From Dehalococcoidia bacterium (GTDB lineage: Bacteria > Chloroflexota > Dehalococcoidia > Lucifugimonadales > GCA-2712585), in the NCBI GenBank assembly GCA_965207845.1, contig CBDBNU010000003.1:52941-116940 (forward strand): a stretch of DNA of 64,000 bases, written 5' to 3'. The notes beneath the pieces are model-generated. The model was given only the letters and a program-made list of their open reading frames with translations, made no database searches and had not been told where the DNA came from. The position numbers and the translations under genes are program-made. Of this stretch, positions 2,634 through 49,727 are shown piece after piece (positions within the stretch are counted from its first letter, which is position 1; each line of letters starts with the position of its first letter).

Positions 2634-3632
2634 CTAGACCTGGTCTTTGAGCCAGGGCATCATTGCCCGCAGCTCTGAACCGACCTTCTCCAGCTGGTGG
2701 TCGGCGTCGGTCTTCCGCATCCGGTTGAAGCGGGGACGGCCTTCGTCGTTCTCGGTGATCCACTCCTTGGCGAAGGCTCCGCTCTGAATGTCGGCCAGCA
2801 CGCGCTTCATGTTTTCTTTCACGTGGTCGTCCACAACCTGGGGGCCGCGGGAGTAGTCCCCGTATTCCGCAGTGTCGCTGACGGAGTAGCGCATGTAGTC
2901 CATGCCGCCCTGGTACATGAGGTCGACGATGAGCTTGAGCTCGTGGAGCACTTCGAAGTAGGCCGACTCCGGCTGGTATCCGGCCTCGACGAGGGTCTCG
3001 AAGCCCGCCTTCACCAGCGAGGTGACGCCGCCGCAAAGGACGGCCTGCTCGCCGAAGAGGTCCGTTTCCGTCTCCTCCTTGAAGGTGGTGTCGAGCACGC
3101 CGGCGCGGGTGCAGCCGATGCCCTTGGCGTAGGCCAGGCCGATTTCGCGGGCGTTGCCGGAAACGTCCTGATGGATGGCCAGCAGTCCGGGGACGCCGGA
3201 GCCGCGGGTGAACACCTCTCGCATCCGGTGGCCGGGGGCCTTGGGAGCAACCATGGAAACGTCCACGTTCTCCGGCGGAGTGACCGTCTCGAAGTGGATG
3301 TTGAAGCCGTGGGCGAACATGAGGGTCTTGCCCTCGTGGAGGTGGGGCAGCACCGACTCCCTGTAGACCGACGGCTGGGTGGTGTCCGGGATGAGCAGGG
3401 TGATGATGTCCGAGGCCTGGGCAACCTCCGCGACGGTTGCCACCTCCAAGCCGTCGGCTTCCGCCTTGGCCTTGCTGGAGCTGCCCTCGTAGAGGCCCAC
3501 CATCACCTTGACGCCGCTGTCGTGCAGGTTGAGGGCGTGGGCATGGCCCTGGCTGCCGTAGCCAATGATACCGACGACCTTGCCGTCGAGGAGGGAAAGA
3601 TCAGCGTCGTTGTCGTAATACATCGTTGCCAT
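2634..3632 (-). CDS. ilvC: ketol-acid reductoisomerase
   Basis: 332 aa. N-terminus [41 protein letters not shown] is the class I KARI signature. It is the last gene of the ilvBNC run. Confidence 0.95.
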
Positions 3633-3685: not shown

Positions 3686-4210
3686 CTACATGGGGCCGGG
3701 GGTTGGTTCCTGGTGGTGGTTGCGGGCCATGCCCCGGACCATCGCCACGCGGCCGGTTCGGATCATTTCGGTGATGCCGAAGGTGGAGAGCAGGTCTTTC
3801 AGGGACTGGACCGTGTCTTCGTCTCCCGTCACTTCCACGATAAGGGAATCCGGGGCCACGTCGACTATGTTCGCGCGGTAGATGTCCACAATCTGCTGGA
3901 TCTCCCCGCGGTTCAAAGCGTCGCTGTTTACGCGGATGAGGGCGAGTTCCCGGGAGATCATGGCCCGCTCGGTGATGGGATGCACTTCCGCGACGTCGAT
4001 GAGCTTGCGAAGCTGCTTGATGACCTGTTCAACGGTGGCGTCGTCCCCGTTGACGACGAAGGCCATGCGGGACATCCCAGCCGTTTCCGATTGGCCTACG
4101 GCCAGGCTTACGATGTTGAAGTTCCGGCGTCGGAACATGCTGGATATCCGGTTGAGGACACCGGGCCGGTCTCGGACAAGGGCGACTATTGTCGATTCGT
4201 TTCTGGCCAT
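3686..4210 (-). CDS. ilvN: acetolactate synthase small (regulatory) subunit
   Basis: Starts at internal Met (MARNESTIVALVRDRPGVLNRISSMFRRRNFNIVSLAVG), an ACT-domain signature. The ATG overlaps the ilvB TGA by 1 nt (TGATG). The upstream Arg/Pro-rich ORF extension overlaps ilvB and is rejected. Confidence 0.9.
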   Translation of the reverse strand: MARNESTIVALVRDRPGVLNRISSMFRRRNFNIVSLAVGQSETAGMSRMAFVVNGDDATVEQVIKQLRKLIDVAEVHPITERAMISRELALIRVNSDALNRGEIQQIVDIYRANIVDVAPDSLIVEVTGDEDTVQSLKDLLSTFGITEMIRTGRVAMVRGMARNHHQEPTPGPM

Positions 4211-26968: not shown

Positions 26969-27000
26969 CGAATTCCGCCGTTTCAGCCAAATGCGGGGAC

Positions 27001-27029
27001 CTCACATTTGCCCGCGGGTCCGGTAGAAT
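27001..27029 (+). promoter_or_regulatory. possible promoter for the low-GC islet genes
   Basis: TAGAAT at 27024-27029 with a weak -35 (CTCACA) 17 nt upstream. Divergent from the nuo promoter. Confidence 0.3.
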
Positions 27030-27066
27030 ATCCGCCGAACACTATTTCTTGAGGGAGGATTGAACG

Positions 27067-27351
27067 ATGGGTTTGGATGTTGGGACAGTACGATTTGACT
27101 ACTCACATTCTCCGAAGGGCGCATGCGTGAAATTCGCCTGGCATCTGGCGGAAAGCTACGATGACGCCGATTGGGGTCTTGCAGAGGGCGAAAACGTAAT
27201 CGCGGAATACACCCTTGAATCATTGGTGGGTTTCGCCAAGAGCTACGGTACATCGGCAGGGCTAAGCGATTCAGACAAGGCCGAGATTGACGGCTGGATA
27301 CGCGGACTGCCGTGGCGGGACGGGTTTGTGGCGCTTCACTTTGGGTGGTGA
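27067..27351 (+). CDS. hypothetical 94-aa protein
   Basis: ATG preceded by GAGGGAGGA. No recognisable motif. First ORF of the islet. Confidence 0.45.
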   Translation: MGLDVGTVRFDYSHSPKGACVKFAWHLAESYDDADWGLAEGENVIAEYTLESLVGFAKSYGTSAGLSDSDKAEIDGWIRGLPWRDGFVALHFGW

Positions 27352-27464
27352 TGGGGAGGGAGGAACTCGCTTGGTGGAATGTCAGATTAGTTGCCTCTAT
27401 ACTTGTAGAGCGCAGTCAGATTCGGATTTGCATCTTCCGATACTTGATTGCTTGAGGGGATGAC

Positions 27465-28088
27465 ATGGTACAAACAAAGCCGCCCGCCCGGGCACCGTAC
27501 GAGACTATCAGCTATGACGATTTGGTGACCTATGTGGTTTACGTACTGACAGCTGGGAACGGTACCCGAACTACTTTTGAAGACATTGTTGCCAAGGCCT
27601 TCGAATTATTCCCCAAGAGATTCAGCCTACGAGGATATCCTCACTGGCCGGATTCCGCGGTGGTAAACAAGAGTTGGCTGAGATCTAGAACCGACAAGAA
27701 GTACATCGTTGGCAGCGTCAAGGACGGTTTCAGACTAACCCAGCGTGGATTACAGGTCGCAAGAAAGGTTGAGCGCAATCTGAAGCGCAAGCCAGCGAAA
27801 GGCAGTCAGAAATTACAGAGCGAACTGCGCACAATTTCCGGTAGGCTGCTAAGGTCAATTGAAAACTCTCCCCAGTTTAAGGGATTCAGGAAATCTGGTT
27901 CGCTTGAGCACATTAAAGAATCGGATCTCCTCGACGTTCTTCTCGCGCTTCCCGACGCCACACCTCGTAGACTATCCAGAAATCTGGCCCAGTTCAGAGA
28001 TGCGGCGAACCTGTACGAGCGTGAAGACATTGAGCGTTTCTTGGAAGCATTGGAGAGCGAATTCCCGCATAGGCTTCAGGTGCCTTAG
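27465..28088 (+). CDS. hypothetical 207-aa protein (possible N-terminal winged-helix)
   Basis: GAGGGGA ribosome-binding site. Lower GC. Basic central linker (KVERNLKRKPAKGSQK). No family recognised. Stops 13 nt before the GHKL gene. Confidence 0.55.
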   Translation: MVQTKPPARAPYETISYDDLVTYVVYVLTAGNGTRTTFEDIVAKAFELFPKRFSLRGYPHWPDSAVVNKSWLRSRTDKKYIVGSVKDGFRLTQRGLQVARKVERNLKRKPAKGSQKLQSELRTISGRLLRSIENSPQFKGFRKSGSLEHIKESDLLDVLLALPDATPRRLSRNLAQFRDAANLYEREDIERFLEALESEFPHRLQVP

Positions 28089-28101
28089 AGCGGTCGCTCA
28101 T

Positions 28102-30006
28102 ATGGCAACTCGCGTATCTAGACGCCTCGAATTCGCCGACCGCTTTGCCCGTCAGCAAGCTGATCAAGCAATAAAGAAGGATATTGTACGTGCGCTAGTA
28201 GAGCTAATTACAAATAGCGACGATAGCTACAAGAGGTTAGAGAGCCGCGGTATTTCCACCAATGGCCAAATAATCGTTGAGATTCTGAGGAAGCATCGAG
28301 GTTCAACCATTTCAGTTTCCGACCTCGCCGAAGGAATGGATGGAACTCAAATGGACGATGCCGTTGGCATATATGCCGGAGAGACGAGTGGGTTTTCAAA
28401 GGGAGCACAAGTGCGAGGTTACTTTGGAAGAGGTCTAAAGGACGCTATTCTAGGTTTAGGCGAAGGTGTCGTAACAGGAACTGTCAACAACAAAATTCAC
28501 CAAGCCTCGCTCACTATTAGGAATAGCTCTCCCTTCTACGAGGCTCAACAGCCCGTCCCACTCCTGGGTTTTGACAACTCCAATGGAACTAGTGTCGAAA
28601 TCACTGTTACACGAGAAGATATTCGCATTTCGTTCTTCGACAACATTCGGGGGCAACTTTCCCTACACTATGCCCTGCGGGATATTCTGTCCAGCGAGAA
28701 TCGCACGATAATTCTCAAGAACAGGAATGCACGAAGCCTACAGGAATCTTCTTTGGCCTACCTGTTTCCTACCGGCAAACTAATGGCGCGAACCGCCATC
28801 CCTGTAGGCAATGCTGGGAAGAAATGTGATGTAGAACTATTTCGATCAGATTTCCCGCTGGATACTCCTCGAGAAAGTGGATACATGGCCCAGGCTGGCC
28901 TATTGATCAAGAGCGGGACTGCGATTCTGGACAATACTTTACTTGGATTCGACAATGATCCAAACGCGCAGAGGTTCTATGGCTCGATTCTTTGTCCACA
29001 CCTCAACGAATTGCTGCTAAATGATGAACAGATTGTAACAGCTACCCGTGATGGATTAGACCGGTCCCACCCCTTTGTATCTGAGCTGTTCAGGGTATGC
29101 GAAGAATTTCTAAAGGAATTCGTTGAAAAAGAGACTCTTCGAGCAAGAGCTACCCAGCAACGGACCAGGAGCAGAGAACTTCAACAGAAACTTAATAGTG
29201 CCATTAGCAAATTGAATGATATCGCCAGAGATGAATTGGCGGAGCTTGACCAAACTGACAATTCTGTCGAAGAACCTCTGGTTCCACCAAGTGGATTCGG
29301 ATTTGTGCCTGAATATGCTTCATTATATTCGACGCGAAAGAAGAATCTCTTATTGCGTGCCACGGCTAACCTAATCCCAGAGGGCACTCTCGTCACCATC
29401 AACTCCGATTCCCCTAACGTGAGAGTTCTTACACCCAGAGTAGTCCTACAACCAAGAGAAGATCACCAATGGTTGAACGAGACGAAAGTAACCTTAGAAG
29501 GCATTCAGGTGGGTGCGGAGGCAATTATTACAGCTGCCTGCGAAGGTCTTACAGCTGAGTCGTTGGTGAGAGTAATTGCACGCAGAGAACCCTCAGACAA
29601 TAACGATGACACGCCACGCAAGAGGAGAGGCCTGTTTAACGACATTCAGTTCAGTCCCGAATCCAATCCCAGACAAAGGGTCAGATACGATCGCCAATCA
29701 AAAGACGTAGTTATCGCAATTAACCACGCAACTGTGAGTCCATATATCTACGACTCGACAGGAACCGGCAGCGATTCCCCACAAGGCCAGGTAATCCTCG
29801 CAGAATTAATCTCAGAGGCGGTTTGCGATACAATTGCTAGAAATGGTGTTGAATCAGGGAAATTCCCCGTTCTAGTGGGCGAGAAAGCTGAGGCGATTCA
29901 AGTACAACAGCTACGCTTACAGAATGAATACTCTGGACTCATACATGAAGCACTGGTATCACCTGAATTCCGTACGCCAAATTCACCTATCGCAGCAGGA
30001 GGTTAG
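28102..30006 (+). CDS. 634-aa GHKL/Bergerat-fold ATPase (HATPase_c_3-like)
   Basis: N-box ELITNSDDSY (E-x3-N-x2-D), G1 box VSDLAEGMDG (D-x-G-x-G) and G2/ATP-lid RGYFGRGLKDA. About 430 aa of unrecognised C-terminal sequence. About 47% GC on a sampled line. Confidence 0.7.
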   Translation: MATRVSRRLEFADRFARQQADQAIKKDIVRALVELITNSDDSYKRLESRGISTNGQIIVEILRKHRGSTISVSDLAEGMDGTQMDDAVGIYAGETSGFSKGAQVRGYFGRGLKDAILGLGEGVVTGTVNNKIHQASLTIRNSSPFYEAQQPVPLLGFDNSNGTSVEITVTREDIRISFFDNIRGQLSLHYALRDILSSENRTIILKNRNARSLQESSLAYLFPTGKLMARTAIPVGNAGKKCDVELFRSDFPLDTPRESGYMAQAGLLIKSGTAILDNTLLGFDNDPNAQRFYGSILCPHLNELLLNDEQIVTATRDGLDRSHPFVSELFRVCEEFLKEFVEKETLRARATQQRTRSRELQQKLNSAISKLNDIARDELAELDQTDNSVEEPLVPPSGFGFVPEYASLYSTRKKNLLLRATANLIPEGTLVTINSDSPNVRVLTPRVVLQPREDHQWLNETKVTLEGIQVGAEAIITAACEGLTAESLVRVIARREPSDNNDDTPRKRRGLFNDIQFSPESNPRQRVRYDRQSKDVVIAINHATVSPYIYDSTGTGSDSPQGQVILAELISEAVCDTIARNGVESGKFPVLVGEKAEAIQVQQLRLQNEYSGLIHEALVSPEFRTPNSPIAAGG

Positions 30007-40126: not shown

Positions 40127-43100
40127 CTAGCGCCGCCGCATAAAGAATATCGCGGCTGCAGCACCAATTGCCAGAGCCGCAGATACCCCTGCTGCAATTG
40201 AAACCAGCAGGGGATTGAAGCCCTCCTCATCCCTATCGTCAAACGTGGGAATTACCGGAGCCTGTGATGAACTCTGGGACAAATCCCTGGGTTGGTTGCC
40301 AAATTCCTCCCAACCCGACTGGCCATCGCCGTTGAAGTCCACCTTCAGGGCCGGGTACTGACTGCTTGTTCCAAAGTCCCAAGCCTTGGCTATGTCCTCG
40401 GTAATCGGGTATCCGTAGTATCTTACGCCCTCTAATAATTGTTTCCAACCGGCATATATGCCCGAATAGTCCGTAGGTTCTTGCAATTCTGAAGTGGTTT
40501 TGCCGATGACTTGAACTTCGCCATCCCACCACGGAAGAGGGAAATGGGCTTCATTAGACGGGTCGCTCTCTCCCGCTCCTGCGAGTTCTCCGGTTGCTTC
40601 GGTATCCCAAAAGCTCTCTATCACGGCCCCACGAATTCTCCCAACGAGCCCTCCCACCTTTTCTTCGCCGACTACGCTCGCTGTCGCAAGACAGTTGATG
40701 ATTGCAGCCGGGCTCTCCGCGCCGCCGTTCCATCCAACAAGGCCACCTACAAATCGCTTGCCAGCCACGCTGCCCGCGGAGTAACTGGCGAGGACATTAC
40801 GGTTATTGTCTCCGACCAGTCCGCCAACGGATTTGACACCTGCCACGCCGGCGTTGGCGTAGCTGGTTTCTACAATGCCCGAGTTCCATCCCGCGAGACC
40901 CCCTACGGATTCTCTTCCCGACACCTGGCCTGTAGCATAGCTGGTCCTCACGGTGGACACGTTCCCACCAATGAGCCCACCTACACTCCTATCCCCTTTA
41001 GTTGTACCATTGGCGTGACTGGCATTGACCAATCCGTGGGAATATCCTACGAGACCGCCTACATAGTGCGTTCCGTTTACATTCGCCTCCGAAAAACTGA
41101 ATGCAATTGGGCATTCACTGTCTTCGTTGCACAACGGAAGGTGCCATCCCACAAGCCCGCCGGTGTGGAAGTTTCCGGATATGTTTCCGCTGGCGTAACT
41201 TCCGCTGACAGTTCCCCCATTTATTCCCACCAGGGACCCAACGTCACGGCCGCCGACGATGTTCACGTCCCCCAGTTTTACTCCTCGGATGATGGAGTCA
41301 GGACCCGTGTATCCAAAGAGCCCCGTTGCTCCTGCGTCGTCCAAGATAGTGGTTCGGTGAATATACAGGTTGCTGATTGTGTAACCGTTTCCCTCCAAGG
41401 TGGCGTTGAACGTGTTCTCGATTTCCTCAATTCCAATGGGAAGCCAGCCGCTGCCCGTCATCCATAGAGGGTTGGGCATGCCGGATGCATAGCTGTCGGA
41501 AACCTGGAAGTCCAGAGGGCGGGTCAATTCATAGCCGGTACATTGGTCACAAGCACCGGTGGCGGGGGCGTGAAAGGCCAGGGCGTAGATTGCGGCCCCA
41601 TCATCATCGGGCGATCCATCGCCATCCAGATCGTATCGAATAGCGTTCAACTGCTCCAGATTAGAGATTTCGATCAGTCCATCGGAGTCGCTATCTAGGT
41701 TGACGCCGTCTTGGGACGAAGGCGTTGGGGCAGGCGTAGGCATGAGGGTTAGAGAAGCCGGAGCCGTCGCCAAGGAAGGATCTCTACCCTGATTGCCGAA
41801 CTCCTTCCACGTCGGAACACCATTCTCGTCGAAGTCAGCCACGAGGGCCGGATACTGGCTGCCTGTGCCAAAATCCCAGAAATCGCCGCTGCCTGTTTCC
41901 AGGGTGAAGTCCCCGTCGGCATTGTCCAAGTCAATGTTCCAAATGTCGTATATGCCGTTGAATCCCGTGGGCGATTGCATTTCGGTGGTGGTCTTGCCTG
42001 GCTCCACCGGCGGATTGCCTTCGCCAGCGCCATTATTCTGTGCAGAGGTGTTAATGTCCCAGAAACTGGAGATGATTCTGCCGGGATTTCTGCCCGCCAG
42101 TCCGCCAACCACGCTTTCGCCGGTTACTCCGCCGGTAGCATAGCTGGATATCACAGTGCCCGGGCCGCCCTCATCCCTCCGGTCTACCCAAGGCATTGAG
42201 TTGTCTCCGATCAGCCCTCCAATCACCCTGGTCCCTGACACGCCACCGGTAGCATAGCTGGCCACGATACTGCCCGAATTGCCTCCCGCCAAGCCACCAA
42301 CAACGCTGTCTCCCATCACGTTCCCCGTTGCATAACTGGCTATAACGTTACTGGGATAGAAGTCGTACTCGTTGACCCCGACCAGACCGCCCACGCTTGA
42401 TTCGCCGGTCACGTTGCCCATTGCGTAGGTGGAAACGATCAGTCCCTCTTCATTCCGCCCGACAAGCCCACCTACTTCCAGATCCCCGGACACGTCGCCG
42501 GATGCATAGCTGAATTCGACTGCACATGCCTTGTGGTCGCTTTCCTTGTGGCTCCATCCGACCACTCCTCCTACTGACTTCTCGCCGGATACTGTTACCA
42601 CGGCGTAGCTGAACCTGACCACGCCATTGTTTATACCTGTCAGCCCTCCCACGTTATCTTTGCCGTTTACCTTCCCGGTAACGTACGAGTTGATTATCTC
42701 ACCTTCATTCCGCCCCACCAAGCCGCCTACGTTGTTTTCTCCTTTGACATTTGCGTTCCTCAGTCCAACATTTCGAATCACGCTGTCCATTCCGGCCCAG
42801 CCGAAGAGGCCCGCAACAGAGAAGTGTGGAAGCTCGTGCTTTATACCTCTGGTATTGAGATTGCTGATGGTATGCCCATTCCCTTCGAATTCCGCAGAAA
42901 AGCGGCTCCTATTCGCGCCAACAGGAAGCCACCCTCTATCTGTTCCTGAAACGTAGCTATCGGGATCTTTGAAGTCCAAGTCCCTTGCCAATTCGTACCC
43001 ACCGCAAGGTTCCGCGCACGCAGCTTCCAGAGCCGTGCGGTCAAAAGCCTCATAGTAAGCGCCATTGTCATCTGGATTGTCAGGGATGCCGTCGCCATTT

Positions 43101-43333
43101 AGATCATGGCGCACGGCATCCAACTGTTCTATGTAGAGAATCTCAATAAGGCCGTCGTCATCCGGGTCGTAGCTTCGATTGTTTGCTTCGACGCTGATGG
43201 CGTCGTGAGGTTGAGTCCCGTCGCGAGTTAGTGTAAGGCTGGAAGAGTCCTCGTCACTATTGTTGCAAGTGAGCACGAAGGAAAGAGTGAGTACCACGCC
43301 GATTGACCACATTACTATTTTGGACAATTTCAT
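40127..43333 (-). CDS. 1068-aa cell-surface GLUG-repeat protein with signal peptide and C-terminal TM anchor
   Basis: Dozens of VGGLVG/VGGLAG (GLUG) repeats. Two copies of a module: DxDGDGLIEI...QL.A.R.DL.GDG, then GNG(H/Y)TISNL, then GLUG run, then WDFGT(G/S)SQYPAL. Ends with a hydrophobic helix plus RRR. Confidence 0.8.
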   Translation of the reverse strand: MKLSKIVMWSIGVVLTLSFVLTCNNSDEDSSSLTLTRDGTQPHDAISVEANNRSYDPDDDGLIEILYIEQLDAVRHDLNGDGIPDNPDDNGAYYEAFDRTALEAACAEPCGGYELARDLDFKDPDSYVSGTDRGWLPVGANRSRFSAEFEGNGHTISNLNTRGIKHELPHFSVAGLFGWAGMDSVIRNVGLRNANVKGENNVGGLVGRNEGEIINSYVTGKVNGKDNVGGLTGINNGVVRFSYAVVTVSGEKSVGGVVGWSHKESDHKACAVEFSYASGDVSGDLEVGGLVGRNEEGLIVSTYAMGNVTGESSVGGLVGVNEYDFYPSNVIASYATGNVMGDSVVGGLAGGNSGSIVASYATGGVSGTRVIGGLIGDNSMPWVDRRDEGGPGTVISSYATGGVTGESVVGGLAGRNPGRIISSFWDINTSAQNNGAGEGNPPVEPGKTTTEMQSPTGFNGIYDIWNIDLDNADGDFTLETGSGDFWDFGTGSQYPALVADFDENGVPTWKEFGNQGRDPSLATAPASLTLMPTPAPTPSSQDGVNLDSDSDGLIEISNLEQLNAIRYDLDGDGSPDDDGAAIYALAFHAPATGACDQCTGYELTRPLDFQVSDSYASGMPNPLWMTGSGWLPIGIEEIENTFNATLEGNGYTISNLYIHRTTILDDAGATGLFGYTGPDSIIRGVKLGDVNIVGGRDVGSLVGINGGTVSGSYASGNISGNFHTGGLVGWHLPLCNEDSECPIAFSFSEANVNGTHYVGGLVGYSHGLVNASHANGTTKGDRSVGGLIGGNVSTVRTSYATGQVSGRESVGGLAGWNSGIVETSYANAGVAGVKSVGGLVGDNNRNVLASYSAGSVAGKRFVGGLVGWNGGAESPAAIINCLATASVVGEEKVGGLVGRIRGAVIESFWDTEATGELAGAGESDPSNEAHFPLPWWDGEVQVIGKTTSELQEPTDYSGIYAGWKQLLEGVRYYGYPITEDIAKAWDFGTSSQYPALKVDFNGDGQSGWEEFGNQPRDLSQSSSQAPVIPTFDDRDEEGFNPLLVSIAAGVSAALAIGAAAAIFFMRRR

Positions 43334-43404: not shown

Positions 43405-44406
43405 TCATTCCTCGTCCCTTGGGGCGAGGGCTTCTATGGCGGCGCGGTAAGAGTTCAGCGCGCCGCCGGCGGAGAAGGGGGCGATGACGGGCATCTGGAT
43501 GCCCAGGGCGCGTCGACGCTGGATCTCGCTCCGGCAGTGTTCCATGCCGCCGACCACGGCCAACGTGCCCTGCATCTCGTCGGTGACGGACTTGGCCGCC
43601 GCCGCCCGGTTGCCCTCCGCCAGATAACGCCCGATGGCCTCAGCTTCGTCCGGGAAGCCGGTGTCGGCGAAGAAGTTCCGGTAATACTCCATGCCGCAGT
43701 AGCGGAGAATCTGCTGCACCAGGGGGGTGCGCACCAGGTTCCTGTCCGGCGTGACGGCGACGCGGATGTAGCAGGCCACGTGGATTTCGTCGAGGTCTCG
43801 ACCGGCCCGCGCCGCGCCGATGTCCAGGTGCTCCAGGGCGCGCTCCAGGTACGCAGGTGCCGCCCAGTTCAGCAGCACTCCGTCGGCCAGCTCTCCCGCA
43901 AGTTCCAGCATCTGCGGGCCAAGGGCGGCGATGTAGATGGGAACGTCGCACTCGCCGCCGAAGCCGAGGCTGCCGTCCTTCACGTTGAACATCTTACCCT
44001 CGTAGTTGACGCGCTCTCCCTGAAGCAGCTTGCGAACCACTTCCACCGTCTCCCGGATGCGGGTCATGGGGCGACGGAAGGGGACTCCGTGGGTGCCCTC
44101 GGCGGAGCCGCGATGTCCCACGCCCAGGCCAAGGGTGAAGCGGCTGCCGGAGACGATGTCCATGCCGAGGGCCGTCATTGCGGTGAGGCCCGGGGTGCGG
44201 GCGAAGACGGGGAGAATGCCGGTGCCAAGCCGCACGGTGCTGGTGGCGCCGGCGAAGGCGGACAGCCGGGTGATGGAATCGGAACCGCCGCCTTCGGGCA
44301 CCCAGATCATGTCGTAGCCGAGAGACTCGGCCAGCTGAGCGAGCCCGATGGAATCTTCGAAGTTGATGTATGGGATGGGATCCAGCCGAACACCCAATGA
44401 ATCCAT
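43405..44406 (-). CDS. LLM-class (luciferase-like) flavin/F420-dependent oxidoreductase
   Basis: 333 aa. LAESLGYDMIWVPE, FTLGLGVGH and IAPFSAG patterns are typical of the LLM family. Confidence 0.8.
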   Translation of the reverse strand: MDSLGVRLDPIPYINFEDSIGLAQLAESLGYDMIWVPEGGGSDSITRLSAFAGATSTVRLGTGILPVFARTPGLTAMTALGMDIVSGSRFTLGLGVGHRGSAEGTHGVPFRRPMTRIRETVEVVRKLLQGERVNYEGKMFNVKDGSLGFGGECDVPIYIAALGPQMLELAGELADGVLLNWAAPAYLERALEHLDIGAARAGRDLDEIHVACYIRVAVTPDRNLVRTPLVQQILRYCGMEYYRNFFADTGFPDEAEAIGRYLAEGNRAAAAKSVTDEMQGTLAVVGGMEHCRSEIQRRRALGIQMPVIAPFSAGGALNSYRAAIEALAPRDEE

Positions 44407-44510
44407 TTTTCTGCCCCCTTCATCCTGTCTGAACGTCTCGGAAAAGCGAGACGACGCGGGAGTGGTTGCGAAAGGCCGTACAGGTACGAATGTGGGAGAA
44501 CCCTCGCTGG

Positions 44511-44546
44511 CTTTACCCTACTTCAAAGGCGGAAGGACGGCAAGGC
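44511..44546 (+). repeat. 36-nt direct repeat, copy A (CTTTACCCTACTTCAAAGGCGGAAGGACGGCAAGGC)
   Basis: Matches 46743-46778 (GTTTACCCTACCTGAAAGGGGGAAGGGCGACAAGGC) at about 30 of 36 positions in the same orientation. Confidence 0.7.
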
Positions 44547-44597
44547 TTTGGGGCGTGGGCTTGTCTGCTGCCGATTGGGTCACGCCGTAAATGGAAA

Positions 44598-44617
44598 GCC
44601 CCCATTTCAGAGGGGGC
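44598..44617 (-). terminator. putative terminator of the mini-protein cluster
   Basis: GCCCCC-N8-GGGGGC hairpin followed on the minus strand by TTTCCATTTA, about 50 nt downstream of the last mini-gene. Confidence 0.45.
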
Positions 44618-44665: not shown

Positions 44666-44941
44666 CTATGACCAACCTTCCGTGGGAGGCTTGCTCCGAT
44701 TCCAGAACTGCCACCAGCTACGGTCCTTCTTGGATGTTGAGGCTTTGTCCTTTTGCTTCTGTTCGTCCAGGGCACGGGCGCGCCGTTCGATCTCCTTACG
44801 GATATCGCTCTCGAAACTTGACCGGAACTGCTTCTCGACTTTTGCCATGCGATCCGGTGGCTGACGACGCCCGGTTCGCTTAGCTTCTCGCTGGTCTATG
44901 TAGGATTTTGAGAGCTCCCTGGGGTCCCGAACTCTATTCAT
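44666..44941 (-). CDS. charged mini-protein paralog 4 (91 aa, degenerate tail KKDRSWWQFW plus 11 aa)
   Basis: AAGGAGGGG ribosome-binding site 8 nt upstream. E/K/R/Q-rich. Tail DNA GAACTGCCACCAGC is related to the other three paralogs. Confidence 0.6.
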   Translation of the reverse strand: MNRVRDPRELSKSYIDQREAKRTGRRQPPDRMAKVEKQFRSSFESDIRKEIERRARALDEQKQKDKASTSKKDRSWWQFWNRSKPPTEGWS

Positions 44942-45027
44942 GTGCTACCCCTCCTTGGGCTGCGCAGAATTCAGTGCTCTGGATTATCTGACTCAAGATG
45001 GGCTTTGTCTGGCTGCCGCTGGCCGTC

Positions 45028-45252
45028 CTACAACCCTATGAAGAACCGCCACCAGCGGCTTTTTTTCTTCAATGCTTCCCTCTTCTGTTTCTGCTCCTCT
45101 AGAAGCCTGGCTTGTTCTTCCTTCTCTGCTGCTTGAGTGTGTTTACTCATTTCAAATTTGCGCAGCGCCTCTTCGTGCATACGCTGATTTTCGCGCGTGG
45201 TCTCAAGGCGCCCCACGTAATCGTCTGCCGGGCCTGTCGTTCTAAATCCCAT
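45028..45252 (-). CDS. charged mini-protein paralog 3 (74 aa, tail KKKSRWWRFFIGL)
   Basis: GGAAAGGA ribosome-binding site. N-terminal TGPADDY motif shared with paralog 2. No TM helix or signal peptide. Confidence 0.65.
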   Translation of the reverse strand: MGFRTTGPADDYVGRLETTRENQRMHEEALRKFEMSKHTQAAEKEEQARLLEEQKQKREALKKKSRWWRFFIGL

Positions 45253-45341
45253 AATCGAATCCTTTCCACCTGCTCAAGATAGAGTGGCAAATGTGAGCAG
45301 ACTCATGATAACTACTGGGCTGGCTAACGCCAGCTTGCCAA

Positions 45342-45572
45342 CTACCCAATAAAGAACCGCCACCAGCGCCCGCGCTTCTTCTTGGCCTCTGGAAAGTTCT
45401 CCACAGGCACCTGTTCCTCGTACGCTACTGGATAGTCTTCATCCTCCTCCGGGTAATTCGAATCCTCCATCGCCTGAATGTGCCGCTGCATTTCCTCCCG
45501 CTGCTGTCTCTCGTAATCGGCTGCACGACGGCTCTTGTATTGATCTGCCGGTCCACGTCCAGTAAGACTCAT
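45342..45572 (-). CDS. charged mini-protein paralog 2 (76 aa, tail KKKRGRWWRFFIG)
   Basis: AGGAGGAGG ribosome-binding site. N-terminal RGPADQY. Acidic middle section. Confidence 0.65.
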   Translation of the reverse strand: MSLTGRGPADQYKSRRAADYERQQREEMQRHIQAMEDSNYPEEDEDYPVAYEEQVPVENFPEAKKKRGRWWRFFIG

Positions 45573-45655
45573 AGCTACGCCTCCTCCTGATCACAACAAA
45601 ATCCAGTATACCAGCAATCTCAAGATATTCTCCCGGCTGGTAGTTGTATGCCGGG

Positions 45656-45916
45656 TTACTCCCCAAAGAAGAACCGCCACCAGCGTCGGCGCTTCTTCTT
45701 TGGACCTTGCTTCTGTTCTTGACTCTCAGGCCTCTTGTAGTATCTAACCTGCTGAACGTCGGACTCGTGCTCGAGGGGCCCCTGCTCCTCCGAAGACTGG
45801 GCATACTTCCCCTGTTTCATCTCAAGATCGTATGCCTGCTGCTTCATCTCCGCCTCACGCTGCCTCTGCTCCGCCAACATTCGCGCCTGGTGTTCGTTGA
45901 ATTGCATGGTCTTCAC
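45656..45916 (-). CDS. charged mini-protein paralog 1 (86 aa, tail KKKRRRWWRFFFGE)
   Basis: TAAGGAAG ribosome-binding site. Q/E/R-rich helical sequence. Same C-terminal tail. Confidence 0.65.
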   Translation of the reverse strand: MKTMQFNEHQARMLAEQRQREAEMKQQAYDLEMKQGKYAQSSEEQGPLEHESDVQQVRYYKRPESQEQKQGPKKKRRRWWRFFFGE

Positions 45917-46077
45917 TTCCTTACATCGCCCAGCCTCAAGAAATTGCCGATGGTCGATTCCCCCAACCCCGGAGGGGGAATTGGCGAAATCTCGGCTATC
46001 CCCGACTGTGCAGCGGATGATGACTCCCTTGTGGACTCCTTCAGGTTAGTCACCGCATTATCCTCAATGCAATAGGA

Positions 46078-46653
46078 TCATCGGAGAATTATCGGAGTTC
46101 TAAAACCACCTTCCCCGCTGCCGGAAAGGTCAAGGCCGCCGGTCAAGCCCAATACGATGAAGTTCAGGATGACAACCGGTATGAACGCGAGCAGTATCAC
46201 GAATACAGCCCTTAGTGTGGACGTGTAGTCCAGGCTCTGCCGAACGGCAACCACCATGCATACAAAGGTCCACGCAAACGTAACGAGATAGACTATCCCG
46301 CCGACGGTGGGTATGAAAATAAGGAAGTTGAGTATTCCGGGTGCCTGCGCGTACCCGGTGGTCCTTGCCAGCTGTCCCCAGTCGGCATCCGTGTCCACAA
46401 CGTCGAAGGCTATTTCCCCAACGGCCCAGGTGAATAGCGCCCAGGCAGCCCAGCTCGCCATTCCTCGGATGACGCCCCTGATCAGCGTCCACCACAGCCC
46501 CGTCTCCTGCCCCGAAAGAAGTTCGCCGCCTACGGTGGCCGCGGAGACCAGTACCACGATGATTACAGCTTGCCAGATTGCACTCTTATCATGCTCTATG
46601 TCCTCGTAGGTCGCGGACCTCAGACGGAGGGCGCCAATCATTCTTAACAGCAT
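46078..46653 (-). CDS. Yip1-family integral membrane protein
   Basis: 191 aa. Short cytosolic N-terminus (RLRSATYEDIEHDKSAIWQA) followed by about 5 hydrophobic helices, which is the bacterial YIP1/DUF1282 layout. AAGGAGG upstream. Confidence 0.65.
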   Translation of the reverse strand: MLLRMIGALRLRSATYEDIEHDKSAIWQAVIIVVLVSAATVGGELLSGQETGLWWTLIRGVIRGMASWAAWALFTWAVGEIAFDVVDTDADWGQLARTTGYAQAPGILNFLIFIPTVGGIVYLVTFAWTFVCMVVAVRQSLDYTSTLRAVFVILLAFIPVVILNFIVLGLTGGLDLSGSGEGGFRTPIILR

Positions 46654-46742
46654 CGGATGATCGAACCTCCTTGGGTTTGTGGAGCACCGACGGGTAGTCG
46701 TGGAGAATCTTGTCTAAGATAAATCAGATGAACCCCGACGGT

Positions 46743-46778
46743 GTTTACCCTACCTGAAAGGGGGAAGGGCGACAAGGC
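46743..46778 (+). repeat. 36-nt direct repeat, copy B
   Basis: See copy A at 44511-44546. The two copies bracket the Yip1 plus mini-protein cluster. Confidence 0.7.
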
Positions 46779-48086: not shown

Positions 48087-48285
48087 GGGGTGGGGGCTTA
48101 AACCAACAGACGTGGCACCCAGCTATGGGAGACCAACATTTTGGAGGCCCTTGGTTGAGCTATCCCTCTTCAAGTCCGTGAATTCCGCAGAACGACAATC
48201 TCCAGTGGTACGCATCATTAACAGACCAAATCAATAGTAATTCACCGACGTTGTCTTTAGAAAATTGTCCTACTCACTGGAAGGT

Positions 48286-48774
48286 TTAGCGTTTCGAGGT
48301 TCCAGCGAGTCTATCATGAACTTGCCGGAGCGTGGGAAAACTTTCAAACGTATCCTTCTGTACCGTCGTGGTTGTGTACAGCAAGAAATATCTTGGTCCT
48401 CGGGCGTTAGCAATCTCGTTGGAAATCTGATCAAGCTTATTGACCAGCATTCTTAGTATGTCCTTTAGACTCGCATTTCGTTGAATTGATGCTTTCCTGT
48501 TTCGCCTCTCATGTGTCAATCCACGTATCCAGACTACACTAATACTTGCTGCCGCCAACAGGCCTTCATGTCGTATCTTGGCACGATCGTCCTTTGTGAT
48601 CCATACCTGATCGCGCCGCCCCATTTCAGGAATAAGATCTTCGTCCCTCGTCCCCTTGGAGGCTAGAACGACAGGGAAGCCGACGGCTTTAAGGGTTTTA
48701 CCTATGATGAGCGGTAAACACTCATCATAGCAGTAAGAAACCCGCTTAACTTGCGAGTCTGTTTTCCCAGGCAA
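48286..48774 (-). CDS. DUF5615/Mut7-C-type PIN-like protein (putative toxin)
   Basis: N-terminal CYDECLP...KTLKAVGFPVV...DEDLIP...WITKD resembles DUF5615. TTG start with a GAGG ribosome-binding site. 29-nt overlap with the upstream DUF433 gene. Extra C-terminal region of about 70 aa. Confidence 0.55.
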   Translation of the reverse strand: MPGKTDSQVKRVSYCYDECLPLIIGKTLKAVGFPVVLASKGTRDEDLIPEMGRRDQVWITKDDRAKIRHEGLLAAASISVVWIRGLTHERRNRKASIQRNASLKDILRMLVNKLDQISNEIANARGPRYFLLYTTTTVQKDTFESFPTLRQVHDRLAGTSKR

Positions 48775-49444
48775 TCGCCGCCTCTACTTGTTTAACAGGC
48801 AATTCATAAGCCCAAGCCAGTCTTTCTGGAGGATCACCGGCCTTGGCCATTGACCAAAGGACTTGTGTAGCAATTCTAGTTCCCTTGATGCACGGTTCCC
48901 CAAAAGCAACCTTAGGATCAAGGACAATGTCTTCCTCTGGCTCCCAAGTCGTTGGGTGCTCATTCTTGTCAAACACCAAGTTGTGCATTGGTCCAACGAA
49001 GAGTTCCACAAAGTTAAAGGCCGCCTGCCAGTTTCTCGTAATGGCGATGGGGATATCGCTATCCTGAATATAGATGCGCAGTCCTGATATCCAAATTGGC
49101 TCCATGGCAAATGGGTGAGCCCACCCCCTTGTCCTCTGGAGTTCGTCATGTGCGAGGCGTATTTCCGTTGATGTAACTCCATGCGCCCTGAAAATCGCAA
49201 TTAGCCTTAGGCTAATCAGATCTAGAAAAGTAAGGGCCACGTCGTTTCCTCTGAGGCCAGTGAGGTACTGTCCAGCCAGTCCGTCTCGAACCCATCGGAA
49301 TACATGGCGGGAAGTTACCTTCATGGAAGAATGGCAGACAATTGCCTGCTCATTTGCCTGCGGCGAGGTAGCTTGGATCAGTGACACAGCATCTATCACT
49401 GGGTAAACGCCAGAGTGTGTTGGTCTACTGAAAGTTGTGACCAT
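48746..49444 (-). CDS. DUF433-domain protein with about 170-aa N-terminal extension (putative antitoxin, VapB45-like layout)
   Basis: C-terminal DPKVAFGEPCIKGTRIATQVLWSMAKAGDPPERLAWAYELPVKQVEAAIAWE is the DUF433 pattern. ATG at 49444 is preceded by GGGAGG 6 nt upstream. Confidence 0.65.
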   Translation of the reverse strand: MVTTFSRPTHSGVYPVIDAVSLIQATSPQANEQAIVCHSSMKVTSRHVFRWVRDGLAGQYLTGLRGNDVALTFLDLISLRLIAIFRAHGVTSTEIRLAHDELQRTRGWAHPFAMEPIWISGLRIYIQDSDIPIAITRNWQAAFNFVELFVGPMHNLVFDKNEHPTTWEPEEDIVLDPKVAFGEPCIKGTRIATQVLWSMAKAGDPPERLAWAYELPVKQVEAAIAWENRLAS

Positions 49445-49727
49445 AAATGACCTCCCTTCCCCTACCACTTAGCCCTAGGAAAGATGGGCGAACTTGATTG
49501 AATCTTATCCCGTTTAGCTAGCTACCGTCAAAGTCTTCCCTTCTAAGTTTTCGAAATATTGGTGATTCTCGCTGTGCTAGTCGTGATGAGACTTTTTTCA
49601 ATTGGATTGAGGCGTGACAATTCCATCGGTCAAGCCTGACTTCACGAAGGATCAATGCAGCGGCGTCACATCTCTAGTATTATCATTTCCAAAGTCCAAA
49701 GGCACCCGATTGCCACACCCCATCCCC

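Follow-up and report, generated by a model that had tools for sequence, protein, structure and literature searches.

A Yip1-family gene and one to four paralogous small-protein genes with a basic-aromatic C-terminal tail form a probable lineage-specific operon in uncultured Dehalococcoidia

Eukaryotic Yip1/YIPF proteins bind the C-terminal tails of prenylated Rab GTPases. Here we describe a locus in which a Yip1-family gene is followed by four small open reading frames (ORFs), called minis below, whose products share a short C-terminal tail rich in basic and aromatic residues. The locus lies in a 64,000-nucleotide stretch of DNA from a Dehalococcoidia bacterium (contig CBDBNU010000003.1), referred to as the window, and, unlike the eukaryotic case, includes no Rab-like GTPases. 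A bacterial member of the family, YknW, belongs to the SDP-toxin efflux system YknWXYZ of B. subtilis (PMC4887032). The role proposed here for Yip1 resembles that of YknW in being that of an accessory or assembly partner rather than an enzyme, but no ABC (ATP-binding cassette) transporter or membrane-fusion protein genes adjoin the module. In the literature searched, no small tailed partners are described for any Yip1 protein, and no paper links Yip1 domains with Dehalococcoidia.

For the tails, the closest described counterparts are the membrane-targeting sequences of MinD and FtsA, which were reportedly characterized by Szeto (2002/2003), Hu and Lutkenhaus (2003) and Pichoff and Lutkenhaus (2005). 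These C-terminal sequences are amphipathic helices (original studies as listed in PMC6803595). The mini tail is likewise a short basic-plus-hydrophobic peptide, often ending in Gly, that forms the very C-terminus of an otherwise soluble protein. The minis differ in that they have no body homology to MinD or FtsA and no ATPase, and their tail, for which membrane binding is predicted here, is Trp-rich, has a K3-R run ahead of it and is far more strictly conserved. MARCKS-ED, a eukaryotic effector domain that is internal and regulated by phosphorylation, is also a polybasic-aromatic membrane binder, and the mini tails may share its reversible binding to acidic membranes through Lys/Arg electrostatics and aromatic insertion, although they are C-terminal and unrelated in sequence. 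The tails are unlike the LPXTG, PEP-CTERM and GlyGly-CTERM sorting signals in that the basic cluster comes before a hydrophobic stretch of only 5-6 residues; near the module, no gene for a sortase or exosortase occurs in the loci examined.

The locus consists of five consecutive minus-strand ORFs in window positions 44666-46653, the Yip1 gene followed by the four minis, all of which are present at the positions given in a preliminary description made from the sequence alone. Their coordinates are as follows.

46078..46653, minus strand: Yip1-family polytopic membrane protein, 191 amino acids (Pfam PF04893, AlphaFold2, hydropathy)
45656..45907, minus strand: mini-protein 1 (type 1), 83 amino acids, with N-terminal helix NEHQARMLAEQRQREAEMKQ..., disordered linker and tail KKKRRRWWRFFFGE
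45659-45700, minus strand: codons of the mini 1 tail KKKRRRWWRFFFGE
45342..45572, minus strand: mini-protein 2 (type 2), 76 amino acids, with GPADQY N-terminal motif, very acidic body and tail KKKRGRWWRFFIG
45345-45383, minus strand: codons of the mini 2 tail KKKRGRWWRFFIG
45028..45252, minus strand: mini-protein 3 (type 3), 74 amino acids, with GPADDY N-terminal motif and tail KKKSRWWRFFIGL
45031-45069, minus strand: codons of the mini 3 tail KKKSRWWRFFIGL
44666..44941, minus strand: mini-protein 4 (type 4), 91 amino acids, net charge +11, with variant tail KKDRSWWQFWNRSKPPTEGWS
44669-44731, minus strand: codons of the mini 4 variant tail KKDRSWWQFWNRSKPPTEGWS

Mini 1 was first drawn as 45656-45916, from an upstream GTG, and was accordingly described as 86 amino acids long. 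The true start is most likely the ATG at 45907 (MQFNEHQ..., 83 amino acids), since homologs begin there and an AAGGAAG Shine-Dalgarno sequence lies 7 nucleotides upstream. Each of the minis was said to have its own Shine-Dalgarno sequence, and a purine-rich one can indeed be read before all four (AAGGAAG, AGGAGGAGG, GGAAAGGA and AAGGAGGGG for minis 1-4, respectively). The spacing of 83-89 nucleotides reported for the ORFs applies between the minis (83, 89 and 86 nucleotides), while Yip1 and mini 1 are 170 nucleotides apart.

Association of the minis with Yip1 was followed across 16 distinct mini-carrying loci (the window, L001-L006, L008, L011, L012, L014-L017, L027 and L066), those of the relatives being drawn from metagenome-assembled genomes of uncultured Dehalococcoidia and from assembled metagenomes, among them a marine scaffold from TARA. 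The Yip1 gene adjoins the minis in 15 of the 16, that is, in all but L015, and its product is 64-100% identical to that of the window. In L006, Yip1 and three minis are surrounded by completely different flanking genes, and in L066, where Yip1 is 64% identical, four minis flank the Yip1 gene to either side and use both strands. We argue from the new flanks of L006 and the rearrangement of L066 that the linkage is functional and goes beyond mere inheritance; when L001-L005 are compared with these two loci, no neighbor other than Yip1 is conserved. Such co-localization had been proposed in the preliminary description as a check on the module, and none of the observations that it had named as speaking against one (absence of homologs, of linkage to Yip1 genes, or of transcription or translation signals, or a tail not preserved among homologs) was made. 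The number of minis per locus ranges from one to four; types 1 and 4 form the common core, and types 2 and 3 come and go. The association holds in one direction only, from mini to Yip1, in that Yip1 homologs of 55-75% identity occur without minis (L010, L013, L019-L022, L067 and L068). We take the module to be an operon specific to one clade of uncultured Dehalococcoidia, encoding a multi-pass Yip1 protein and one to four paralogous small proteins.

Minis 1-3 end in KKK(R/S)xRWWRFF(I/F)G, and mini 4 ends in WWQFW plus 11 residues. Types 1-3 have 0-1 residues after the WWRFFIG core, and the extension of type 4 is 10-11 residues. Within the 64-kb window, the tail motif is found only at these four ORF ends. 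Over the 13 tail residues, minis 1-3 are identical to one another at 9-11 positions, which agrees with the earlier statement that their tails are nearly the same, and mini 4 matches the others at 5-6; the bodies of the four window paralogs are 17-33% identical. The tail of mini 4 had been regarded as decayed, but WWQFWKRxKxxTEGW(D/S) is conserved among type 4 orthologs with the same extended tail (L001, L004, L006, L008, L012, L016, L017 and L066), so that it is better described as a maintained variant. The N-terminal GPAD-Y motif pointed out in minis 2 and 3 is real and is also kept in the homologs P0005 and P0028-P0030. The tail is not a chance resemblance, because it is unique to these ORF ends in the window, far exceeds the bodies in identity and occurs in genes under purifying selection (see below), and because GPAD-Y is conserved as well.

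The four types differ in their bodies. Type 1, the commonest, has the pattern MQFNEHQARMLAEQRQREAEMKQ...KKKRGRWWRFFIG(D/E/G), and its N-terminal body is the longest conserved stretch of the protein. Orthologs of type 2 are P0004, P0007, P0019, P0029 and P0030, and those of type 3 are P0005, P0017 and P0028. Judging from the sequences, the tandem paralogs appear to recombine and decay. P0031 (L002-L004, 5759-5917) is a 40-amino-acid chimera in which an acidic body resembling type 2 is joined to a type-1 tail (WWKFFIGE), P0027 is of type 1 but has a frameshifted C-terminal half, and the order of types is 1-2-3-4 in the window and 1-3-2-4 in L008.

Codon alignments of type-1 and type-4 orthologs give ratios of nonsynonymous to synonymous substitution rates (dN/dS) of 0.15-0.53 (0.23-0.44 for type 4), with a clear excess of third-position changes. 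In the tail, the codons for Arg, Gly, Phe and Ile vary synonymously across loci, with Trp-8 and Phe-10 invariant. The mini-ORFs are real genes under purifying selection, and because of the synonymous variation, conservation of the tail must act on the protein rather than on a DNA repeat; preservation at the protein level, anticipated in the preliminary description, is borne out by both the ortholog alignments and the codon variation. These data bear directly on the idea that the ORFs are non-functional, the tail being a DNA or RNA repeat, or that they encode ribosome-arrest or regulatory peptides controlling the next cistron. The 17-nucleotide stretch CGCTGGTGGCGGTTCTT, identical in three copies within the window, and small hairpins 3' of the mini 1 and mini 2 stops could be read in this way. 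We nevertheless consider the idea very improbable, given dN/dS values well below 1, the third-position excess and the synonymous tail differences between loci. In addition, the last mini has no downstream cistron, and the minis have no N-terminal signal or transmembrane segment of the kind found in known arrest peptides. Folds of the intergenic spacer RNAs have z-scores from -2.45 to +0.76, and only the spacer between minis 2 and 3 beats its shuffled controls; there is no convincing conserved spacer RNA structure, and the minis have zero matches in Rfam.

The family is small and confined to its lineage. A profile of the four minis retrieved 26 proteins among 5.8 billion (only 72 proteins shared enough 5-mers for scoring), and HMMER, run exhaustively over 1.84 billion representatives with a family profile built from 26 sequences, retrieved 11 proteins, all of the mini family. 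All mini-family matches of both searches fall within one Dehalococcoidia lineage, and the family comprises approximately 30 minis compared with more than 500 Yip1 homologs. Several mini ORFs in related contigs had been left uncalled by gene finders. Comparison with Pfam and NCBIfam gave sub-threshold matches only (best E of 0.04; 14.6 bits vs a cut-off of 27.8), comparison with PADLOC gave one weak match (E=0.019, 11.8 bits), and PHROGs and PDB sequences gave zero, in keeping with the earlier remark that these paralogous proteins belong to no recognized family. The string WWRFF is absent from the approximately 8 million full texts searched. We classify the minis as a new protein family with a proposed type of mechanism, a C-terminal membrane anchor, that is already known.

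Searches aimed at the tail gave little beyond the family. A 40-amino-acid query ending in the tail collected only itself, and is uninformative on the tail in other proteins. The DNA pattern KKK-x3-WWRF retrieved 42 stretches from JGI metagenomes, all of them out-of-frame or chance matches except for L027, the sole true family member, in which a Yip1 gene again lies upstream. The single match on a viral contig (L065) was rejected as a family member, as it is an unrelated phage protein. This protein (L065 1021-1305, plus strand, IMGVR_UViG_3300045988_089093; also in L043, ERZ834769 NODE-4532) has 94 amino acids, is hydrophilic and helical, and ends in ...EELKKKTTRWWRF*; downstream of it is a 110-amino-acid ORF (1392-1724) with a hydrophobic, membrane-like segment. 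L065 may represent a convergent polybasic-RWWRF C-terminal tail, but the search pattern demanded the motif, and so the match is not independent evidence.

The 191-amino-acid protein matches Pfam PF04893 with 37 bits (cut-off 28.6; E=4e-9) over profile positions 7-169 of 173; its homologs are precomputed as PF04893 and bear the NCBI name 'YIP1 family protein'. The AlphaFold2 model (pLDDT, the predicted local distance difference test score, of 83.5; predicted template modeling score, pTM, of 0.78) has long helices at residues 25-45, 53-82, 104-113/117-140 (kinked) and 146-170, which agree with the hydropathy segments, and there are approximately five transmembrane helices. This is the Yip1-like protein of roughly five transmembrane segments that had been proposed. 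Foldseek found no match to the model in the PDB better than E=1. Two segments are acidic, YEDIEHDK at the N-terminus and the loop that follows the second long helix (residues 80-92, EIAFDVVDTDADW, net charge -5), and both the N-terminus and this loop, between transmembrane helices 2 and 3, are predicted to be cytoplasmic. The net charge of the loop is -5 in the mini-carrying Yip1 clade and 0 to -3 in a mini-less clade of 55-61% identity.

The minis themselves have grand average of hydropathy (GRAVY) values of -1.3 to -1.8, and 37-45% of their residues are charged. Inspection of the four ORF sequences revealed no hydrophobic segment, signal peptide, hydrophobic N-terminus or double-glycine leader, so that the earlier characterization of the minis as extremely hydrophilic, with neither signal peptide nor transmembrane segment, stands. 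The net charge of the body ranges from -9 (mini 2) to +8 (mini 4), and the tails of types 1-3 have charges of +5 or +6 (+6 for mini 2). In an AlphaFold2 model of mini 1, based on the family alignment, an N-terminal helix at residues 5-40 (pLDDT 74-84) is followed by a low-confidence linker, which is as expected for a tethered, largely disordered protein.

The picture that we favor, with a probability of about 0.5, has the minis as cytoplasmic proteins, helical in part and otherwise disordered, that a polybasic-aromatic C-terminal anchor holds on the inner face of the membrane, probably at Yip1. Each mini would combine a hydrophilic body, helical or charged, with a disordered linker and an anchor of 13-14 residues, in which three to six Lys/Arg residues are followed by W-W-R-F-F/W-I-G. 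The basic residues would bind anionic lipid head groups and the Trp/Phe cluster would insert into the membrane interface, the two contacts together tethering the protein to the cytoplasmic face. The tethered minis would act at, or dock onto, the acidic, predicted cytoplasmic side of the co-encoded Yip1 formed by its N-terminus and TM2-TM3 loop, and one membrane platform would have body types 1-4 as its alternative peripheral subunits or adaptors. We infer the cytoplasmic location, membrane binding, docking and biological role in this picture. Membrane binding is suggested by composition, namely the charge of +5/+6, the identity with RRWWRF (see below) and a summed Wimley-White interfacial energy of -6.3 to -8.5 kcal/mol for the aromatic and hydrophobic residues of the tail. 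The best 8-mer of the tail has a hydrophobic moment of 0.72-0.94, and energy and moment equal or exceed those of the MinD and FtsA targeting sequences. Docking onto Yip1 is suggested by the tight gene linkage through rearrangements and by a tail that is stricter than lipid binding alone requires; taken on its own, it is less probable than the picture as a whole.

The same strictness can be turned to a different account, in which a protein partner (Yip1, a protease or a chaperone) specifically recognizes the tail as a short linear motif, lipid binding is incidental, and the minis are ligands, regulators or substrates. W8, F10 and the K-K-K run are near-invariant over paralogs with bodies that are only 17-33% identical, a degree of constraint greater than is usual for generic membrane-targeting helices, and the strict linkage to Yip1 and its acidic face would fit as well. 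The composition of the tail is, on the other hand, that of a lipid-interface binder, Yip1 is the sole partner conserved in the neighborhood, and minis persist where Yip1 bears stops or is absent. We regard this account as possible but rather doubtful. A related and similarly tentative proposal is that Yip1 is a membrane receptor that recognizes dedicated small proteins by their conserved polybasic-aromatic tail, and is a prokaryotic counterpart, through convergence or deep ancestry, of YIPF proteins engaging Rab tails; the parallel with Yip1-Rab binding is speculation by analogy.

Several observations weigh against the anchored, Yip1-associated arrangement that we favor. In the mini 1 model, the tail, a candidate amphipathic helix by its hydrophobic moment, forms only a helical turn of three residues, with a pLDDT of about 60. 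The Yip1 proteins of the L010 and L067 types (70-75% identity) have loop charges of -5 or -4, yet no minis, and the topology of Yip1, and hence the sidedness of the acidic loop, is derived from hydropathy and charge only. Two minis occur in L015 amid fragments of genes, with no Yip1 within 4 kb. In L011 and L014, one short mini is retained next to a Yip1 gene that bears two in-frame stops, at 4163 and 4274 in L011 (OZ250180.1; TGG to TGA twice) and at 3253 and 3475 in L014 (ERZ25067264 ctg574822; TGG to TAG twice), all at conserved Trp codons; the genes beside these stop-bearing copies are intact. The stops probably reflect pseudogenization by G-to-A transitions, with long-read consensus error (at 5x and 16x coverage) as the alternative. 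Recoding of the genetic code was rejected, since one locus has TGA and the other TAG. Given the broken Yip1 genes of L011 and L014 and the absence of one from L015, the minis may not be strictly dependent on a cognate Yip1.

Retention of minis beside a broken Yip1 would also suit a role as membrane-tethered protectants, similar to hydrophilins or late embryogenesis abundant (LEA) proteins, against osmotic, desiccation or temperature stress, with Yip1 merely co-regulated. The extreme hydrophilicity, the 37-45% content of charged residues, the predicted disorder of the central region and the variation from one to four copies among close relatives are in line with such a role. It is unlikely in our judgment, as it leaves unexplained both the adjacency of minis and Yip1 after the rearrangement in L066 and the maintenance of four body types with conserved motifs of their own.

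A last explanation takes the tail to be the active product. Aureocin A70 and garvicin KS are multi-peptide leaderless bacteriocins of 30-50 amino acids, amphiphilic or hydrophobic and linked to ABC exporters. Their loci are like the present one in that tandem small cationic Trp-containing ORFs lie beside a membrane protein; the minis are unlike them in having no linked exporter and in their extreme hydrophilicity, with GRAVY values unlike those of known leaderless bacteriocins. The hexapeptide RRWWRF, which occurs verbatim in mini 1 (GRWWRF in most homologs), is the synthetic 'Combi' Trp/Arg antimicrobial peptide obtained from a combinatorial library (PMC2937036, the reference list of which includes a nuclear magnetic resonance study of micelle-bound RRWWRF), and RRWQWR of lactoferricin is a related Trp/Arg-rich peptide (PMC2937036). 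Among described peptides, the synthetic Trp/Arg ones are nearest to the mini tail in sequence. The mini tail shares the cationic and aromatic membrane-interface design of these peptides, but unlike Combi it is the C-terminus of an intracellular-looking protein of 74-91 amino acids in which no secretion signal is seen. The minis could be precursors from which a cationic, membrane-active 13-14-mer is released, the body serving as a neutralizing pro-region and Yip1 providing immunity or export. Besides the hexapeptide and the multi-copy arrangement, the charges of mini 2 (body -9, tail +6) and the part that YknW, a Yip1-family protein, plays in protection from a peptide toxin (PMC4887032) would accord with this. 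It is made improbable by the absence of a signal or leader peptide, by a well-conserved type 1 N-terminal body that is under purifying selection, by the body of mini 4, which at +8 neutralizes nothing, and by the gene context. Genes for a transporter, protease or modification enzyme do not accompany the module across loci, its flanks being different in L006 and L066. The gene set of a secreted peptide (transporter, protease, immunity) was not found, with Yip1 the only conserved partner and, for the minis, no Pfam match above threshold and only one weak PADLOC match.

The module has a GC (guanine plus cytosine) content of 0.548, with mini 3 lowest at 0.511, compared with a mean of 0.609 over the window and 0.66-0.67 in the two neighboring genes; at third codon positions, the values are 0.59-0.73 for the module and 0.82-0.84 for the flanks. 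The cluster is therefore lower in GC than its surroundings, as had been noted, although not as low as the 47% that was given. The following features lie at its borders.

46730..46778, minus strand: promoter-like element (TTGTCG, 17 nucleotides, TAGGGT), copy 1 of a 49-nucleotide repeat, upstream of Yip1
44588..44617, minus strand: terminator-like hairpin GCCCCC UCUGAAAU GGGGGC (N8 loop), then T-rich UUUCCAUUUA, after mini 4
44498..44546, minus strand: promoter-like 49-nucleotide repeat, copy 2, upstream of the luciferase-like gene, at the downstream boundary of the module
43405-44406: luciferase-like monooxygenase gene (Pfam match), downstream of the module

The 49-nucleotide direct repeat that brackets the module has two copies only in 64 kb (0 expected), 77 nucleotides upstream of Yip1 and 92 nucleotides upstream of the luciferase-like monooxygenase gene. 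The copies are 78% identical, with the core CCTTCCsCCTTTsArGTAGGGTAAA and consensus hexamers TTGyCG and TAGGGT separated by 17 nucleotides, from which we read the repeat as a putative promoter. It is kept 5' of both Yip1 and the luciferase-like gene in the window, L005 and L001, with copies in relatives at L005 4804-4828 and 6716-6740, L003 6715-6739 and L012 7857-7881, and was not found upstream of Yip1 in L006. The two copies may reflect either duplication of a promoter upon insertion of the module or co-regulation of both units. The low GC and the flanking direct repeat led us to consider horizontal transfer, or an island origin; weighing on this idea, the repeat resembles a duplicated promoter and also occurs at the luciferase-like gene in differently arranged loci. 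The module was also said to have its own terminator hairpin, and one is present 3' of mini 4 as a consensus match (GCCCCC-N8-GGGGGC and a T-rich run; stem at 44617-44598), with the 6-bp GC stem retained in the RNA fold. In the Yip1-mini 1 spacer of L001, L008 and L017, there is a conserved stretch, TTGATGCAATGGAGCATCGGGAATATGATGA, with sigma-70-like hexamers (TTGATG, 17 nucleotides, TATGAT), which could serve the minis as an internal promoter; the corresponding spacer of the window preserves it only poorly.

Beyond the luciferase-like gene, the window encodes a 1068-amino-acid protein (40127-43333, minus strand) rich in GLUG-motif repeats (Pfam PF07581, E=1.4e-22); it starts with a signal-like segment and closes with a hydrophobic anchor, the last residues of which are RRR. 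This gene takes the place of the DUF6027 and Fpg genes found 3' of the luciferase-like gene in related loci, so that synteny breaks directly downstream of the neighbor of the module. Two more low-GC stretches occur in the window, at approximately 27000-29500 and at 48100-49600 (0.45-0.51 vs a mean of 0.61). In the latter, a DUF433-containing ORF (48746-49468) overlaps a 162-amino-acid ORF (48286-48774) that has no Pfam match, and the two could form a toxin-antitoxin-like system or belong to a small island.

The weight of these findings is limited by the occurrence of the family in a handful of uncultured Dehalococcoidia genomes, by its decay in some members and by a phenotype that is not in sight. 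Mini 1 provides a natural occurrence of RRWWRF, so far known only as a laboratory-selected membrane-active peptide, and should the tail act as a compact membrane tag of 13 residues, it could become a tool. The cluster also illustrates how much conserved small-protein biology goes missed by gene finding. Proteins with a Yip1 domain occur widely among bacteria and archaea, and very little is known of their function; the linked, tailed partners would give a testable hypothesis for one of them. If Yip1 were indeed a receptor for the mini tails, prokaryotic Yip1 proteins would thereby gain their first class of ligands and a first handle on their function.

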